From positions 4,055 through 68,054 of the forward strand of contig JBGUVX010000032.1 in NCBI GenBank assembly GCA_045220575.1: a DNA stretch of 64,000 nt, given 5' to 3'. Under the pieces are notes generated by a model. That model had not been told where the DNA came from. It saw nothing but the letters and a program-made list of their open reading frames with translations, and ran no database searches. The first letter of the stretch is position 1. Every line of letters starts with the position of its first letter. Origin of the DNA: Bacteroidaceae bacterium. GTDB taxonomy: Bacteria; Bacteroidota; Bacteroidia; Bacteroidales; Bacteroidaceae. Below, piece by piece: positions 1,801-9,000 of this stretch. The position numbers and the translations under genes were made by a program.

Positions 1801-2766
1801 TCAGCGCATGAGCTGCGACACATCGAAATGACCGTCGATGGTGCGAATCTCCACCTTGCCAGCCATGACGTCGAAGAAGAAGTCGCGGATGCGTTCGATG
1901 CTCAGCGTCACGGGATTGCCCTTGGCATCCTTGCCCATGTCGTAGCTCTTCAGCAACTGAGGCCCCAAGGCGGCAGCCGTCAGCAGGAAGTGATTCTGGA
2001 ACTTGTCCGTGTCGATGAGGTCAGCAGCCAGCACCTTGCCCACTACCGAATAGCAGCGCAGGGTCTTCTGCACCTCCTCGTCGGTAAGTGACGACTTTAG
2101 TTCGTCGGCATCCACATCCATCTCTATGCGGCCTGAGTTGGCAGACTGTTCCACACCACGATACAGGGCACCGAGGTCGGCCAGCGACAGATTGAAGAGC
2201 CTTGCCCCGGGAGCCACAGAAAGTTTCTCGATGGAGAAGGCACTGGGCAGCAGCAGATGGTTGGTGCCCGCAATATGAACGTAAGGCGCATTGAAGGTGC
2301 CTACGACGCTTCCCGTAATGTCGATTTGCTGGGTAGCAAACACACCGCCGATGACGACACAGTTCTCCAGCGTCACGTCGTCGGCATAGATGCTTCCGGC
2401 CACGAAGGCATTATAAAGCGTCACCTGCTTGGCATTGACGTCGGAGGCAAAAACGAGCTTACAGCCCGTAGCACGCGACGTTATCGAATTGGCAGAGCCC
2501 ACGGCCTTGCGGAAGGCGATATCGCCCGTAGCCGATGTGTTGACATACAGCTCCAGTTGTGTGAACACAGCTCCCTGCACCTCCAGCGGGCCGTTATTCA
2601 CCTCGAACTTGTGGGCATAGACGGCACCTTCAATGACCGTAGCCCCCTCGATGCTGATGTCGCGGTTCAGTTCGTCCACCTTCTCGGGCAGTATGCCACC
2701 CTTCACTCTGTTATTGTCCAGCTTCACGCCCTTTCCGTTGAAGCGCAATTCTTTCAGTTCTTCCAT
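1801..2766 (-). CDS. Hypothetical protein with a repetitive beta-helix (bactofilin-like) core; last gene of the six-gene operon
   Basis: The ORF track gives 1801-2787 from a TTG start. The first ATG (MEELKELRF) is at 2766. The central ~150 aa is a degenerate V/G/A/T-rich short-strand repeat (IEGATVIEGAVYAHKFEVNNGPLEVQGAVF...VTLENCVVIGGVFATQQIDITGSVVGTF). I do not recognise a family with certainty. Confidence 0.7.
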   Translation of the reverse strand: MEELKELRFNGKGVKLDNNRVKGGILPEKVDELNRDISIEGATVIEGAVYAHKFEVNNGPLEVQGAVFTQLELYVNTSATGDIAFRKAVGSANSITSRATGCKLVFASDVNAKQVTLYNAFVAGSIYADDVTLENCVVIGGVFATQQIDITGSVVGTFNAPYVHIAGTNHLLLPSAFSIEKLSVAPGARLFNLSLADLGALYRGVEQSANSGRIEMDVDADELKSSLTDEEVQKTLRCYSVVGKVLAADLIDTDKFQNHFLLTAAALGPQLLKSYDMGKDAKGNPVTLSIERIRDFFFDVMAGKVEIRTIDGHFDVSQLMR

Positions 2767-2806: not shown

Positions 2807-3832
2807 TCACTTCACCCGCATGATGCGGTTTTTGGAAAACAGGTTGAGCATCATCTGACGCACCCGTTCGTCGTGGGCCGTCGGAGAAGCAAAGTGGCTA
2901 CCCACCTCGGCCTTGAAGTAGTTGGCCACACGTTCCTGCTCGGCATTGCTGACGGGTTCCCACTGACGATGCTCTATCTGGTCGCGCACCACTCCGTTAT
3001 CAATGGCGTTCGTAATGGCCTTCGGGCTATACAGGAAGGTTGACTTCACGCCGTCCTCCCCTACCCGCTCGGTCATCATCAGCGGTACGTAATAGCAGGC
3101 CTCGTCGCCTTGGAACATGTGGTGAGCAATGGTGCTTCGCATGTCGCGCTGACGATAAAGGTATTCACTGGCATGATGCAGCATTTCGGAAGCCTGATGC
3201 TTCAGCGTAGCAGACGACAAGTGAGCCTGCAACTTGGCTTCCTCACTTCCCGTCACTACAACGGTGCTCACCATGTCGCTGTCCGAACCCTTCTGTGCGT
3301 AGGCATCGGCTGTTTCGCGGAACTTGAACACAGGCAGGTCGATTTCGTGGATGCGGTTTTTCAGTTCGGCATTCAGCGTGTCGAACACCTTGATATAGCG
3401 CTGACAGATGCGCTGATAGTCGACGCCCATCTGGTTCTTCTTCTCCAGGCAGCGCTTGGTCTGCTCCACCAGATGCATGGCCAACGACTCCACTTCATTG
3501 GTGAGTTCGTTGATTTGCTGACTGATTTCCGAGCCGATGGTCTTGAAGAAACCGTTGATGATAGTGGATGCCACACGCTTGGAGTTCGAATCCACCGAGG
3601 CCACCTGAGCCGCTTCGGTAGCCGCAACGGCACCCGTCAGGATGTTCACCTGCTGGTTGCAACTGGCCACACTGTTGTCGAAGGGGTTGGTATCGACGTG
3701 CACATTCACGTTCACGACCTCTGTCGCCGTACCGCTGTAGCTCTTGGTTCCGCCAGTCTGCGAGGCAGGATAACTCACCGTACCCGAATAGTGGATGGTG
3801 ATGGTTTTACTTACTGTTCTGGTATAACTCAT
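2807..3832 (-). CDS. Hypothetical protein, paralogue A of a tandem pair
   Basis: 341-aa ORF whose ATG overlaps the stop of the upstream gene (ATGA at 3829-3832). It aligns by eye with 3829-4758 over ~130 aa (VDTNPFD...INGFFKTIGSEISQQ...GVDYQRICQRYIKVFDTLNAELKNRIHEIDLPVFKFRE). Confidence 0.75.
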   Translation of the reverse strand: MSYTRTVSKTITIHYSGTVSYPASQTGGTKSYSGTATEVVNVNVHVDTNPFDNSVASCNQQVNILTGAVAATEAAQVASVDSNSKRVASTIINGFFKTIGSEISQQINELTNEVESLAMHLVEQTKRCLEKKNQMGVDYQRICQRYIKVFDTLNAELKNRIHEIDLPVFKFRETADAYAQKGSDSDMVSTVVVTGSEEAKLQAHLSSATLKHQASEMLHHASEYLYRQRDMRSTIAHHMFQGDEACYYVPLMMTERVGEDGVKSTFLYSPKAITNAIDNGVVRDQIEHRQWEPVSNAEQERVANYFKAEVGSHFASPTAHDERVRQMMLNLFSKNRIMRVK

Positions 3833-4758
3833 GATGCAGCGGTGTTGAAGGTTTCAAAACTATTCTTCTGGAACAGTGTGCGAGCCATCTCCTTCACACG
3901 GTCGCTGGCCTGGGAGGCAGAAAGCAGTCGGTTGAACTCGTTCTGAATCTCGCCACTAATTTCCCCAGTCTGCTTCCAAGGCAGTTCGTTCACTTGTTCG
4001 AGCACACGATTACGGGTTGCCGCCACGGCCTGTGGGGTAATGCCGTTGGCATTGGCCACCACGTTGGTGGTTGTGGCTCCCGAGCTGTCGATACACGCCT
4101 CCGATACGATGTTCGGCAACATGTACAGGGCACTGGGCTTCGAAGTCGGCAGGTGCAGCAAGATGCGGTTGGTCAGCTTCTTCTGGTTGGCCATACCCGC
4201 CAGGAAGGACGACATTGTGTCGATGACCTCCAAGGCATGATGCTTCACGTTGGAAGCGGCAATGCGTTGGCTCATGGTCAGCGACTCCAACTGTGAGAGG
4301 GGCACCGTCGAGGTCAACTGTCGCGGACGGTTGGAAATCAGTTCCAAGTCGCGCTCTGCAAAGTCGAACGTGGGACGGTCCAGTTCATAGACACGCTGCT
4401 TCAGGCTCTGATTCAGGGTGCCAAAGAGTTTGGTATAGCGGGCTGTAATCATGTTGTAGTCGTGTTCCATGCGCGTCTTGATGTTCAGCAACATACGTGT
4501 CTGCTGCTGCAACTGCATGATTAGCGAGTCCACTTGGCTGGTCAGTTTTGCCGTCTTTTGGGAAATCTGCGAACGGATGAGGGTGTAGAAACCACGGTTT
4601 ACGTTGTTGCAGACATGTTCGGCAGCATCGTTTTCGGCTTTTACCACAGCTGCCTTCATCGCCACGACAGCCGTGGTGGTACCCGTCACATGATGGGAGA
4701 TGGAGTTCATCTCACTGGCCATTGGATGGGTGTCGATTATACAATCTATATTTGCCAT
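3829..4758 (-). CDS. Hypothetical protein, paralogue B of a tandem pair
   Basis: 309-aa ORF with an ATG start. It shares a motif set with 2807-3832 (IDTHPMA...VNRGFYTLIRSQISQK...MEHDYNMITARYTKLFGTLNQSLKQRVYELDRPTFDFAE). The middle looks helical. Confidence 0.75.
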   Translation of the reverse strand: MANIDCIIDTHPMASEMNSISHHVTGTTTAVVAMKAAVVKAENDAAEHVCNNVNRGFYTLIRSQISQKTAKLTSQVDSLIMQLQQQTRMLLNIKTRMEHDYNMITARYTKLFGTLNQSLKQRVYELDRPTFDFAERDLELISNRPRQLTSTVPLSQLESLTMSQRIAASNVKHHALEVIDTMSSFLAGMANQKKLTNRILLHLPTSKPSALYMLPNIVSEACIDSSGATTTNVVANANGITPQAVAATRNRVLEQVNELPWKQTGEISGEIQNEFNRLLSASQASDRVKEMARTLFQKNSFETFNTAAS

Positions 4759-4803: not shown

Positions 4804-6921
4804 TCATGCCTTTTCTTCGTCGGACTCAGGTTCGTCACCTTCGGATTCGTCGGCCTCAGAGTATTCGGCTTCGGATTCGTCGACTTCCTCAGTCTCTGCC
4901 TCATCGTCCGTAATCTCAGCTTCGTCGTCTACGACCTCATCGCCTGCGGACTCCTCATCGAAGTCCTCTTCAGGTACATCCTCGGGCACGTCTTCGGGTG
5001 TCTCTTCCACTTCGTCAACAGGCTCTTCCTCGGGTTCCGGCTCCTCGTAACGACTGTTGGCAGCATCGGGATCGCCAGTTTGCAACATGGTATCAAGGTC
5101 CTCAAGTGCACGTTGGGCCAGTCCTGGCAGGTTCAACGAGAAGTGTTCGTAGGTGACATCGTCCACCTTGGGCTGCGGCAACAGTTGTGACGTACGTGCC
5201 AACAACGGGTTAGCCAGTGCCAACGGACGGCTGCGGTCGTCGAGCTCGTTGATGGCAGCAGGACTGGAAGCCACGGCTGCATCGTTGAAGTGCGAATCGC
5301 GCAACTTTGCATCGTAGTATTCGATATGTTCGAACTTCACGGCCTTCTGGTCGATGTCTTCCTTCAGGCGTTCGATGTACTCCTCGAAGTCGTCCTGCGT
5401 CTGACGGAACTGTGCCGACTTGGTCTCGAAGGTGGCAATGGTCTCTGCCGTGTTGTCCACGACATCCACCTTTGTAGCATCCAGCGACTGCGATTTCTGC
5501 ATGTTGGCCTCGGTCTGCTGCAAGGAGATGAGGGTATTGTAGGCTGCCACATATTCGCGCAGGGTTTCCTGCATCTGGCTGATAAGCTGCGAACTCTCGG
5601 CACGGTTGGCACGATAGAAGGCATCCGTGTCCTGATGCCACTTGTTCAGGTAGTCCAACTTCTGGTCGCGGATGTGGTTGTAAATCTTCAGGCGCTCGAT
5701 GCGGTTCTCGGCCATCAGGTTCTGCACCACGGGAGCCACTATCTCTTCGTATATCTGATGTACGCCGAAGGGCATCGTCGTCGTGGAACCGTCCTCTGCC
5801 GTCCACATGCCAGAGGCCATATTGAAACGGACGCGGCTGCTGGTACGCAGTTGGAAGGGTTCGTAGCCCTGCACGTCATCGCTATAGTCGAAGCGTTCCA
5901 TGCGGATTCGCTCTATCTCGTCGTGCTCGAGCATGGGGGAATAGTGGTTGTAGGGAGCCTTCAGAATTTGGTACAGCAGTTTGTTGGACTCCAGCACCAC
6001 CTTGTCCACTGAAGCCACTTTCAGCGACGATATGGCCTGCACCGAGCCTGCCATCGTCACCATCAGCTCCTTCAACACATCCTCGAACTGCTTGGTCTTC
6101 GTGGACAGCGAGTCCTTCAGGGCATTGAGTTCCTGGAACTTGTTGATACCCTTTTCGTAGCGCTGGTCGTCGAAGACCTTCAGCACGGCTGCGTCCTCGG
6201 GTAGGTCTTTCGTGGCAAATTCGTTCAGGAATGCCTGATAGTCGCTGTTTTTGCTCACGAGAGGCAGGGACACCGACGATGTATCGAGGTCGTCCATGCA
6301 ATAGGCGATGGTGCGTAACGAATGGTCGAGTTTCCCGAAATAGTCGTGCTGGTTGATTTCCTGAATAGAGGGTGAGTAATCAGCCGTCTCCACGGTCTCC
6401 GTGTCCTCAGAGGTCTCTACCAAGGGAGCTTCAGCCGACAGTTTCTCCAAATCGGCTATCGTCTCCACCAGAAGGTCGTTCTGCCGCGACATCTGCAACG
6501 TGACTTCCGATTCGGGAACGCTTCCCGTATAGTCCACGATGAAACTCTCGTCCTCGTACTTCACCTGATTGGCAATGGGGGTATAGACCACACCCATCTT
6601 CGTTATCTTGTAGTCACGGAATATCTCGTCGTGCTGTTTCTTGAACTCTCTGATGCGAGGTTCTATGTCATCGATTTGCTTCTGCAGTCCCTTCTTCTTA
6701 AAATAATAGAAGATGAAAAGGACGATTGTGTAGGGCCACCACCAGATTTTGGCGATTTCCTCTTCGATACGCTTCTTCTGTTTCTCCAGGTCGGCAATTT
6801 CTTTCTCTATCCGTTCCTCTTCCTGGACAATCTTCTGAGCCGACCTCATGTAATAGTCGAACAACAATTTAGCCTGATCTTGGTAAACATTCTCCGACTG
6901 AGCAAAAACTTTTCCCGTCAT
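4804..6921 (-). CDS. Large hypothetical protein: N-terminal coiled coil, one TM helix, long helical body and a ~70-aa polyacidic tail
   Basis: 705-aa ORF with an ATG start. Charged heptad-like N-terminus (EEERIEKEIADLEKQKKRIEEEIAKI), hydrophobic segment WWWPYTIVLFIFYYF, and a C-terminal E/D-rich tail (EEPEPEEEPVDEVEETPEDVPEDVPEEDFDEE...). I saw no P-loop or other catalytic motif. Confidence 0.75.
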   Translation of the reverse strand: MTGKVFAQSENVYQDQAKLLFDYYMRSAQKIVQEEERIEKEIADLEKQKKRIEEEIAKIWWWPYTIVLFIFYYFKKKGLQKQIDDIEPRIREFKKQHDEIFRDYKITKMGVVYTPIANQVKYEDESFIVDYTGSVPESEVTLQMSRQNDLLVETIADLEKLSAEAPLVETSEDTETVETADYSPSIQEINQHDYFGKLDHSLRTIAYCMDDLDTSSVSLPLVSKNSDYQAFLNEFATKDLPEDAAVLKVFDDQRYEKGINKFQELNALKDSLSTKTKQFEDVLKELMVTMAGSVQAISSLKVASVDKVVLESNKLLYQILKAPYNHYSPMLEHDEIERIRMERFDYSDDVQGYEPFQLRTSSRVRFNMASGMWTAEDGSTTTMPFGVHQIYEEIVAPVVQNLMAENRIERLKIYNHIRDQKLDYLNKWHQDTDAFYRANRAESSQLISQMQETLREYVAAYNTLISLQQTEANMQKSQSLDATKVDVVDNTAETIATFETKSAQFRQTQDDFEEYIERLKEDIDQKAVKFEHIEYYDAKLRDSHFNDAAVASSPAAINELDDRSRPLALANPLLARTSQLLPQPKVDDVTYEHFSLNLPGLAQRALEDLDTMLQTGDPDAANSRYEEPEPEEEPVDEVEETPEDVPEDVPEEDFDEESAGDEVVDDEAEITDDEAETEEVDESEAEYSEADESEGDEPESDEEKA

Positions 6922-6961: not shown

Positions 6962-7645
6962 TCAATAGCTCTGTCTGCGAGCCTTCACAAGTTTGTCGAG
7001 CTTGTCGAGCAGGTTCGAAACCTCTTCCTGTCTGCCGGCATCCAGCGAGGCATCCAGCGAGGTAACAAGCTGCAGGATGCGGCTCTCAATAGCGCGTGTC
7101 TCAGGATTCTCACTGGCCGAGGTATAGCGCAGATCCTCCTTCATGGCTTCGATGCGCTGACGCACGTTGATGTCGGCAATGTCGTGCTCCAACAACAACA
7201 TGTTAACGCTTTTCCTGATTTCCTCGAGCGAGCTGCGCATGGCTTCCTCGCGGGCATGCACACTGGCAACCTTATCATTCATACCGAAAACGCCCGAATA
7301 GCCCAAAGACAACAGTCCCAACAGGGCAATTTGGGCAAAAAGCTGTATGCTAAAGGACCATTCCAACTTAGCACCCAGAAAAATTACGGCAATGGCCAGT
7401 AGGGCATACATCCAGTTCACCGTCCAGCGCAATCCCAACGAGCCCACTTTACGCTGAGCCTTATCGGCAAGATTGAGCCAAGGTACGAAGATGTCTACAA
7501 AGAACAAGCCGTAGATGATGAGGGAGACCACGATGTCCAGCGCCAGCACCTTATCGGGCAGTGCAGGACGACCGAATAGCAGAAATGCTCCGACGATGGC
7601 ACCTGCTCCTATGAGACAGGCCAAAATGCTTAATGCTTTTCTCAT
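6962..7645 (-). CDS. Hypothetical 4-TM membrane protein with a C-terminal helical/coiled-coil tail
   Basis: The ORF track gives 6962-7699 from a GTG start that would overlap the upstream gene by 20 nt. The first ATG (MRKALSILACLIGAGAIVGAFLLFG) is at 7645. There are four hydrophobic segments followed by a ~100-aa charged helical tail. Confidence 0.7.
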   Translation of the reverse strand: MRKALSILACLIGAGAIVGAFLLFGRPALPDKVLALDIVVSLIIYGLFFVDIFVPWLNLADKAQRKVGSLGLRWTVNWMYALLAIAVIFLGAKLEWSFSIQLFAQIALLGLLSLGYSGVFGMNDKVASVHAREEAMRSSLEEIRKSVNMLLLEHDIADINVRQRIEAMKEDLRYTSASENPETRAIESRILQLVTSLDASLDAGRQEEVSNLLDKLDKLVKARRQSY

Positions 7646-7679
7646 AGCCGTATCAGTTATATGGATAAAATGTTTCGCT

Positions 7680-8969
7680 TTAATCGCGCTTTTTGCCACA
7701 TTTAGGGCAGAACTTCACATTTGCCGGCATGGGAGTGCCACAGCGGCTGCATACGAAGTTGGCCGTGATAATCTGTGCCCCACAGTTACCGCAGAAGGTC
7801 TGGCCTGGCATAACGGGCTGTCCGCAGTTGGGACAACGGTCCTGAGCCTGCTGCAAGGTGGCTCCGCAACTGACACAGCGGCGTGCGCCCTCGGCATTGT
7901 CTGCCCCGCAATTGGGACACGGATTATAGGGGTCGCCGCAGTAGGGGCAGAACTTGGAAGTGCTGGGATATTTCTTGGCACAGTTCGAACAATAGACCAT
8001 CCGCACCTGTCCTTGTGGTACCTGCTGGCCGTCCTGCACGAAACCCTGCTGCTGACCGCCGCCCTGACCGCCGAAGGTGGGTTGGTTGTACTGGGGGTTC
8101 ATCATTCCGGCTCCCATACCGGCGCCCATGCCATTCATCATTCCCAAGGCCATGATGCCGCCAAGCATGCCGCCGCCTGTGCCGCGTCCCATGCCTTGGA
8201 CAGCCTCTTGAGCCACGCCGAACATCTGCTCCTGCTGCCAGGTGCGTCCCGTTATGGACTGCGCACTCTGCTGCGATATGGCTTCGTGTACCTTGCGACC
8301 AGCTTCCGTCGAGGTGTCGATGTCGATGCCCGTCACATAGAACTTCGTCAGTTCCAGTCCTATCTCGCTCCAGAACGAACTTGTGGCTTCCTTGAGGTAC
8401 TGGGAGAGTTGGTCGAGGTAGGCCGAAATGGACTTGAAGCCCACATGGTTCTGCATCATGAACTGCACGATGCAGGATTTCGTCTTTGTCACAAACTCTC
8501 CGTATGCCTGGTCCGTAAGGTCGCTCTCCGTGAACGTGGCACGTGTACCCACCAAACGAACCAGGAAGCGTTCGGCATCCATCACCCTCAGGCCGTAGCG
8601 ACCACTGGCCACCAGCGGCAACTGGGTCTGGTAGTCGACATCCTGAATGGACATGCTGTCGGTAGTCCAGTCCAAATTGGCGGGCAGGATTTTGTTGACG
8701 AACCACACCTCGGCCATGAAGGGGTTCTTGCCCCCAAAGGGAATGCCGAAGAGGTTGCGTAACAAGGGAATGTTCTCGGTGTCCAGAGTGTACTTTCCGG
8801 GACCGAACTTCTGCAGCAGACGTCCCTTGGAGAAGAGCACAGCCTCCTGCGACTCCTGCACGAGCAACTGTGTCCATGTGGAAAGATTGGTTTCGGGATA
8901 GCGGTAGGCAAAAATGGTCTCTTCTCGCGAATCGCGGGGAGTCCAGCTAACTAAGTCAATTATAGCCAT
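7680..8969 (-). CDS. YdjI-like SPFH/Band-7-type protein with a Gly/Met/Gln-rich linker and four C-terminal zinc ribbons
   Basis: The track start at 8975 is TTG; the ATG (MAIIDLVSW) is at 8969. The architecture matches my recollection of B. subtilis YdjI / COG4260: an N-terminal SPFH-like domain, a low-complexity linker (GMGRGTGGGMLGGIMALGMMNGMGAGMGAGMM) and a C-terminal zinc-ribbon region. Here that region holds 8 CxxC pairs (CSNC, CPYC, CPNC, CVSC, CPNC, CGNC, CSRC, CPKC). Confidence 0.8.
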   Translation of the reverse strand: MAIIDLVSWTPRDSREETIFAYRYPETNLSTWTQLLVQESQEAVLFSKGRLLQKFGPGKYTLDTENIPLLRNLFGIPFGGKNPFMAEVWFVNKILPANLDWTTDSMSIQDVDYQTQLPLVASGRYGLRVMDAERFLVRLVGTRATFTESDLTDQAYGEFVTKTKSCIVQFMMQNHVGFKSISAYLDQLSQYLKEATSSFWSEIGLELTKFYVTGIDIDTSTEAGRKVHEAISQQSAQSITGRTWQQEQMFGVAQEAVQGMGRGTGGGMLGGIMALGMMNGMGAGMGAGMMNPQYNQPTFGGQGGGQQQGFVQDGQQVPQGQVRMVYCSNCAKKYPSTSKFCPYCGDPYNPCPNCGADNAEGARRCVSCGATLQQAQDRCPNCGQPVMPGQTFCGNCGAQIITANFVCSRCGTPMPANVKFCPKCGKKRD

Positions 8970-9000
8970 ATTCAATGTGTTTTTTGGTACGTAGCGGTCA

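Follow-up and report, generated by a model that had tools for sequence, protein, structure and literature searches.

Two adjacent genes in a genome assigned to a Bacteroidaceae bacterium encode related proteins that match no annotated family, and they raise the question of what such a pair is and what it might do beside a membrane-organising SPFH protein. The genes lie in a stretch of 64,000 nucleotides (assembly GCA_045220575.1, contig JBGUVX010000032.1, positions 4,055 to 68,054 of the forward strand), which was analysed at its full length and is referred to here as the window. Paralogue A (3829..4758, minus strand) is a soluble, basic protein of 309 amino acids (aa) with a pI of 8.7. Paralogue B (2807..3832, minus strand) is a soluble, near-neutral protein of 341 aa with a pI of 6.5, and has an A-like architecture plus an N-terminal extension. 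We find that A and B, two paralogues from an unannotated family, go back to an ancient duplication, are under constraint, are inherited together and differ consistently from each other, and that they are genes 4 and 5 of an invariant, enzyme-free cassette of six genes that is centred on an SPFH protein. Bacteroidota dominate gut communities, and SPFH proteins are universal membrane organisers whose bacterial clients are largely unknown. The one well-studied SPFH protein of the YdjI type recruits PspA; here the helical partner is an obligatory pair from a family with no annotation, no solved structure and no detectable relatives.

A tandem paralogue pair in a cassette of fixed order

The relationship between A and B extends over nearly all of both proteins. 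BLASTP aligned residues 1-299 of A to residues 39-335 of B (E 8e-36, 29% identity, 49% positives), and hhalign matched the A-family alignment to the B-family alignment over 291 columns (probability 100%, E 2.9e-40). Given these alignment extents, homology spans the whole proteins and not the core alone. A first-pass annotation of the window had described two minus-strand open reading frames (ORFs) encoding tandem paralogues with a core of about 130 aa; both ORFs are present where it placed them, and the pairwise alignments bear out the relationship. The core is indeed the best conserved part: residues 5-135 of A (4354..4746, minus strand) share 38% identity with residues 43-173 of B (3314..3706, minus strand), which BLASTP and hhalign both align to them, compared with 15-20% elsewhere. 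The same distribution of identity is seen in 76 pairs of A and B from the same locus. The C-terminal halves had been described as diverged. They have diverged, but they retain homology, as the profile alignment reaches the C-termini.

A recurring motif had also been reported for the two proteins, and we recovered it as 30 columns that are at least 90% conserved and carry the same residue in both families. The shared columns include G56/F57, S63-I65-S66-Q67, D100, R107-Y108, K110, F112, L119, R122, P129, F133 and P215. Because Gly, Pro and aromatic residues are among them, the similarity is not that of a compositional coiled coil. In A, the core motifs read DT.P, T..AVVA...A, GF...S.ISQ and DY...(R)Y.K.F..LN..L..R..EL..P.F. 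The ratio of nonsynonymous to synonymous substitution rates (dN/dS) of A is 0.058 against the orthologue from locus L023 and 0.099 against that from locus L024; the values for B are 0.059 and 0.133. Both genes are thus under purifying selection. B evolves faster than A. A similarity due to chance or composition, or an ORF that is no real gene, has only the general risk of spurious coiled-coil matches in its favour and can be set aside as practically excluded by the E values of 8e-36 and 2.9e-40, the hundreds of full-length orthologues of each protein, a dN/dS of ~0.1 and the 30 shared columns.

The window genome contains exactly two copies of the family, A and B, and no extra copy of the core was found in the other cassette proteins, the rest of the window or the genome. 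The end of A and the beginning of B share the sequence ATGA (3829..3832, minus strand), in which stop and start codon overlap. Translational coupling through this overlap had been proposed, and both the overlap and the tight spacing are there, but ATGA is not a trait of the whole family: the distance from A to B is -4 nucleotides in 17 loci and +2 to +12 nucleotides in the remaining related loci.

Searches of Pfam, NCBIfam, PADLOC and PHROG gave no significant match to A or B, and PDB sequence searches with A, B, an A+B profile and a B profile returned nothing significant, in agreement with the earlier statement that the motif belongs to no annotated family. Every named homologue of A and B carries the label “hypothetical protein.” When the A+B profile was run with HMMER against the full set of 1.84 billion cluster representatives, only 702 proteins were recovered at E <= 1e-3, 476 of them at E <= 1e-30; they fall into two length classes of ~305 aa and ~340 aa. 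Scanning with the sequence of the distant variant P0338 alone gave no matches, and an alignment was required to recover its relatives. When 125 aligned family members were compared with Pfam, only scattered sub-threshold matches were obtained, and neither A, B nor these relatives contain a Band_7 or Band_7_1 (SPFH) domain. Sporadic weak matches to ApoL, Perilipin and Apolipoprotein occurred in 1-5 of the 125 members (E > 4e-4, below the cut-offs). The DisA-linker family (PF10635) matched B at 14.9 bits against a cut-off of 25 and matched 21 of the 125 members weakly (best E 1.7e-6). We read these matches as helical-composition noise, since searches of PDB with the family profiles retrieved no DisA chain. 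As judged from the profile searches, the A/B family is small, closed and undescribed.

The pair occurs within a cassette whose gene order is SPFH/zinc-ribbon protein, four-helix membrane protein, acidic coiled-coil protein, A, B and bactofilin-like protein. In a scan of 185,579 species genomes, the full order was found in 68 of 80 loci, and the other 12 end at contig edges. The same order occurs in all five other GTDB genomes with the family, in two metagenomic examples, and in divergent lineages that include Salinivirgaceae, Porphyromonas, Chitinophagaceae, Saprospiraceae-like bacteria and a metagenome-assembled genome (MAG) of Fibrimonadales. Among ~100 loci examined, all complete cassettes have exactly one A followed by one B, and no complete locus has only one of the paralogues. 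When 80 A sequences and 76 B sequences were placed in one tree, the two families were split on a single branch with a Shimodaira-Hasegawa-like approximate likelihood ratio test (SH-aLRT) support of 100. As A and B form two clades on one branch, a single duplication preceded all of the sampled cassettes.

The locus from Segatella copri F3-48 (L216, NZ_JAPEIV010000016.1) appears to hold a decayed cassette. Its coiled-coil gene matches residues 2-427 of the query only, A follows ~2.3 kb onward, B is represented by residues 51-197 only, and no bactofilin-like gene was found. Two genome bins contain two cassettes each. Those in USPA_maxbin.052 (L034 and L036) are distinct and those in RGIG5009 (L072 and L073) are identical; such double cassettes could be duplications, strain mixtures or binning artefacts.

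Asymmetry and predicted structure of A and B

The two paralogues differ consistently in charge. Within the long helix of A, residues 58-126 (4381..4587, minus strand) are basic and amphipathic, as judged from their charge and hydrophobic periodicity. The net charge of this stretch is +7.0 +/- 0.9 across all 80 A sequences. The same helix segment in B has a net charge of 0.0 +/- 1.2, and A is the more positive of the two at each of 76 loci. At fourteen columns each family conserves a residue of its own (for example, K68/Q106, K71/E109 and R96/Q134); a further 53 columns are conserved in A only and 16 in B only.

B also carries an N-terminal extension (residues 1-38; 3719..3832, minus strand), which is beta-rich and kept across the B family. 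It had been noticed before and put at ~45 aa; the alignment confirms that it exists but gives it 38 aa. Its consensus, MSY.RS...I.VHYSG.V.SYPASQ.GG...YSGT.YE.V, contains two YSG motifs and is conserved in the B family only. Some B variants have N-terminal extensions of 60-100 aa (P0252, P0315, P0338, P0350 and P0386, and those of loci L163-L166 and L213 from Salinivirgaceae MAGs). These retain the MSY(x)(R/K) start and the VDT.(P)FD junction, and their middle part is variable and beta-rich.

We compared the distance matrices of all 15 pairs of cassette genes. The correlation is highest for A and B, with a raw r of 0.92 and a partial r (after subtracting the mean of the other cassette proteins) of 0.53. 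The SPFH protein and the coiled-coil protein rank second by partial r (0.39), and A and the bactofilin-like protein rank third (0.33). Together with the asymmetry of the two proteins, these values are consistent with A and B being two non-redundant subunits of one assembly, in which they may be in contact.

An AlphaFold2 model of the A monomer, built on 125 sequences, has a mean pLDDT (predicted local distance difference test) of 82.7 and a pTM (predicted template modelling score) of 0.31; its tertiary arrangement is therefore not reliable. The model has a continuous helix of 116 residues (11-126), helices at 128-142 and 155-199, and a compact C-terminal alpha/beta domain at 216-304. Family-averaged hydrophobicity along the long helix has a period of 3.6-3.67 residues with a peak at 3.67, which corresponds to 11-residue repeats. 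Foldseek found no match to the A model in PDB (best E 1.1) or among the viral structures of BFVD (best E 0.026, TM-score 0.12). No transmembrane segment was detected in A or B, for which the top 19-residue hydropathy windows score 0.93 and 1.2, respectively.

The periodicity of ~3.67, the very long helix and the basic character of A recall the 11-residue-repeat helices of apolipoproteins, perilipins and alpha-synuclein. This likeness is known here at the level of sequence, and A and B differ from those proteins in carrying a conserved C-terminal alpha/beta domain. We also considered binary alpha-helical pore-forming toxins of the ClyA/XaxAB/YaxAB type, which have a hydrophobic membrane-inserting head or tongue. 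They were rejected, as no such chain was among the Foldseek matches in PDB and the hydropathy of A and B is too low for a membrane segment.

Neighbouring genes and spread of the cassette

Gene 1 of the cassette (7680..8975, minus strand) encodes a YdjI/SamI-type SPFH protein (Band_7_1 E 6.2e-34, DZR E 9e-27), which consists of a Band_7_1 domain, a low-complexity linker rich in Met, Gly and Gln, and four zinc ribbons. Other Band_7_1 proteins of Bacteroidales have different partners and never A or B, so the pair is specific to the cassette. The common Band_7_1 type, of ~380 aa, scores 300-360 bits and has different neighbours; the cassette SPFH proteins score 120-134 bits and are, by these scores, a divergent subtype.

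Gene 2 (6962..7699, minus strand; start codon uncertain) encodes a 245-aa membrane protein that has four hydrophobic helices and ends in a coiled coil. Gene 3 (4804..6921, minus strand) encodes a 705-aa coiled-coil protein with one short hydrophobic segment at residues ~59-75 and a poly-acidic tail. Neither protein has a match in Pfam or NCBIfam. The 705-aa protein has a net charge of -82, and its acidity is conserved, with family means of -76 overall and -35 in the tail. Given this conserved, extreme acidity, the basic face of A may have this protein as its partner; anionic lipid is another candidate. Its AlphaFold2 model is of low confidence (pLDDT 59), and Foldseek with the model returned generic coiled-coil noise only. 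The single hydrophobic segment of this protein (residues ~56-75) is of the LWVWFLTIILFFVYFIKK type. In cassettes of the Chitinophagales/Flavobacteriales type (loci L056, L061, L074, L081, L086, L090, L095 and L096), an amphipathic basic stretch, SSFWNRIKLWFQGKLKK, stands at the same position. Since the segment can be replaced in this way, the anchor is probably monotopic or peripheral rather than a true transmembrane helix.

Gene 6 (1801..2766, minus strand) encodes a beta-helix, bactofilin-like protein of 321 aa. Its match to Bactofilin (PF04519) is borderline (E 1.5e-5, 25.6 bits against a cut-off of 27.9, residues 114-196), and it has no sequence match in PDB. The mechanically called ORF begins with TTG at 2787; homologues of 321-325 aa and their alignments favour the ATG at 2766 (MEELKELRF...). 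The start of the adjoining FeoA-FeoB fusion is probably MKLSELKIG (~1721) and not the one at 1823. Pfam and NCBIfam searches of the six cassette proteins detected none of the usual effector or sensor domains, such as those of nucleases, NTPases or proteases. None of the six matched the 5027 models of PADLOC-DB 2.0, in which the 705-aa protein gave only noise at E 0.036-0.064. A scan for sigma-70 promoters and terminators found no more than expected by chance.

The family was detected in 5 of 400 sampled order-level genomes, each from a different family-level taxon, and in 0 of 400 genomes sampled at phylum level. Most of the named carriers are MAGs of Bacteroidales from the rumen, the gut or termites. 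Also among them are Capnocytophaga sputigena, C. periodontitidis, C. sp. oral taxon 863, Labilibaculum filiforme and Dysgonomonas termitidis, and members of Chitinophagales, Sphingobacteriales and Flavobacteriales, a Melioribacteraceae MAG and a Fibrimonadales MAG. Culturable carriers are C. sputigena, C. periodontitidis, L. filiforme and D. termitidis. Outside Bacteroidota, we found single MAGs labelled as Ignavibacteria-type, Fibrobacterota-type and, doubtfully, Clostridia or Saccharibacteria. A tree of the concatenated cassette disagrees with taxonomy: Capnocytophaga falls inside a Bacteroidales clade, and the cassettes of Chitinophagales, Labilibaculum and Dysgonamonadaceae are nearly identical. 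From this tree, the whole cassette has probably been exchanged horizontally, mainly among Bacteroidota, bearing in mind that the taxonomic labels of MAGs can be wrong.

The genes that flank the cassette are variable and mostly housekeeping (a ribosomal operon, PGK, FeoB). No flanking gene, including defence or mobility genes, recurs across the loci, and no relatives of the family were found in plasmid, phage and IMG/VR collections. An empty site was not found in genomes of the same family, which are too distant for the comparison (FeoB 35-50% identical, the other flank gene not found). In three Tenuifilaceae-type contigs (L018, L019 and L020), SiaC-family genes (PF09345) lie on both sides of the cassette, and a DUF6272 gene and a 75-aa ORF lie just upstream of the SPFH gene, an arrangement unseen in other loci.

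Possible roles of the pair

The system that the cassette most resembles is pspA-ydjGHI (pspA-samGHI) of Bacillus subtilis. In that system, YdjI is built of a Band_7_1 SPFH domain, a low-complexity linker and a zinc ribbon (PMC8581546). It depends on two membrane proteins, YdjG and YdjH, and brings in PspA, a homologue of ESCRT-III (PMC8581546, PMC13713150, PMC11237479). YdjG has a zinc ribbon, an NTF2-like domain and a transmembrane segment, and YdjH has a TPM domain (PMC11237479). Both operons are organised around a soluble Band_7_1 SPFH protein with a linker and C-terminal zinc ribbon, and both combine it with membrane-anchored partners and a soluble long-helical protein, which in B. subtilis is recruited to the membrane. 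The differences are also clear. The helical part of the cassette is a pair of paralogues without detectable homology to PspA, and there is no pspA gene; the membrane partners lack the TPM domain of YdjH and the NTF2-like domain of YdjG; and four zinc ribbons are fused to the SPFH protein. The cassette adds a bactofilin-like protein and an acidic coiled-coil protein of 700 aa, and it occurs in Bacteroidota with a patchy spread.

By analogy with this system, the reading that we favour, tentatively and at somewhat below an even chance, is that A and B may form the hetero-oligomeric helical subunit of a membrane scaffold that is PspA-like without being related to PspA. Near-equal amounts of A and B would be made from the tightly coupled genes, and the two proteins would assemble side by side through their amphipathic helices of ~115 residues into an elongated hetero-oligomer. 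Anionic lipid or the poly-acidic tail of the coiled-coil protein could be the docking site for the strongly basic helical face of A, and the beta-rich extension of B could bind a further component. A and B would be drawn to the inner face of the cytoplasmic membrane by the SPFH protein and the two membrane-anchored proteins, and would there be part of a scaffold or coat that maintains or remodels the membrane; the pair would thus take the place of PspA without homology to it. In a bolder version, to which we give a minor chance, A and B would be a new, non-homologous membrane-coating or remodelling polymer that is recruited by the YdjI-type SPFH protein and replaces PspA/ESCRT-III in Bacteroidota without PspA, with the basic, 11-residue-periodic helix of A on the anionic inner leaflet and B bridging to the bactofilin-like protein. 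If A and B do assemble into a heteropolymer on the membrane, the task of PspA and ESCRT-III would have been solved independently in evolution, and the pair would offer a handle on membrane maintenance in Bacteroidota, which mostly lack PspA.

Several observations weigh against the scaffold reading. The analogy with PspA rests on one common component, the SPFH protein, as partners of the ydjGH kind are undetectable here. PspA (PF04012) was not found in the window, the window genome or four other cassette-bearing genomes, and this absence is weak evidence because PspA is rare across Bacteroidia: among 151 phylum-level genomes it occurs in 51, of which only two are from the same class and none from the same order. 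The correlation between the distance matrices of A and B may reflect shared constraints of paralogues and not contact, and the low pTM of the A model must be counted here as well. Finally, a patchy spread and a tree that is incongruent with taxonomy would sooner be expected of an accessory or conflict system than of a core housekeeping function at the membrane.

That A and B are themselves diverged members of the PspA/Vipp1/ESCRT-III superfamily is suggested by the linked YdjI-type SPFH gene, as found with pspA in B. subtilis, by their long, helical and soluble nature, and by the lack of a recognisable PspA in five cassette genomes. We consider this very improbable. No match to PspA_IM30 (PF04012) or Snf7 (PF03357) was found in the window or the 125 members, and hhalign of the 125-sequence A+B profile against 21 PspA sequences from the phylum Bacteroidota gave a probability of 0.18%. 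PDB profile searches and Foldseek returned no PspA, Vipp1 or CHMP/ESCRT-III chain. In the monomer model (pTM 0.31), A has one continuous 116-residue helix and not the alpha1-alpha2 hairpin of ESCRT-III.

The spread of the cassette speaks for a role in conflict, in which A and B would be subunits, either structural or effector, of a system against phages or other bacteria that has not been described before: the SPFH and membrane proteins would sense perturbation of the envelope, and the helices of A and B would act on the membrane, for instance by permeabilising it, as in abortive infection, or by blocking injection. The cassette is sporadic (~1% of order-level species genomes, 0 of 400 at phylum level), its tree mixes orders, it is a self-contained unit between variable flanks, and a decayed copy exists in Segatella copri F3-48. 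What makes this unlikely in our judgement is that the six proteins match none of the PADLOC models and lack the usual effector and sensor domains, that housekeeping genes make up the flanks and no defence or mobility gene recurs there, that the family was not found in the plasmid, phage and IMG/VR collections, and that A and B have no hydrophobic membrane-inserting segment. The same patchiness speaks against A and B being coiled-coil-rich cytoskeletal filament proteins that act with a bactofilin-like polymer in shape, division-site placement or polarity, with the SPFH and transmembrane proteins as tethers only. A shape cytoskeleton would be expected throughout a lineage and not in ~1% of species scattered over many families, and to our knowledge the hosts range from rods to filaments and have no obvious common morphology. 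Moreover, the bactofilin match of gene 6 lies below the cut-off (25.6 against 27.9 bits) and the protein has no PDB sequence match. On the other side, the beta-helix protein invariably adjoins B, its partial correlation with A is the third-highest (0.33), the helices are very long with a regular hydrophobic periodicity, and the cassette contains no enzymes. On balance, we regard a cytoskeletal role as improbable.

Two further comparisons bear on the organisation of the cassette. Known bactofilin and coiled-coil cytoskeletons resemble it in having a beta-helical bactofilin gene beside long coiled-coil genes and no enzymes; here, the membership of the neighbour among bactofilins is borderline. 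Our literature search retrieved no paper combining “SPFH” and “bactofilin,” and we know of no bactofilin or coiled-coil system that is organised with an SPFH protein. The second comparison is with HflK/HflC and other heteromeric SPFH pairs, which share with A and B an ancient tandem duplication, an obligatory co-translated pair and an expected alternation within a membrane oligomer. A and B lack an SPFH domain, and the cassette has just one SPFH gene, apart from theirs, so this likeness is one of logic and not of fold.

A second Band_7_1 type, of ~335 aa, was seen in Bacteroidales (G542:C38, L158; G566:C47, L159). Its gene directly follows one or two genes for proteins of 415-446 aa, each of which begins with a zinc ribbon (MAKLKTIKCPQCGS...), giving a YdjG-YdjI-like arrangement without A or B.

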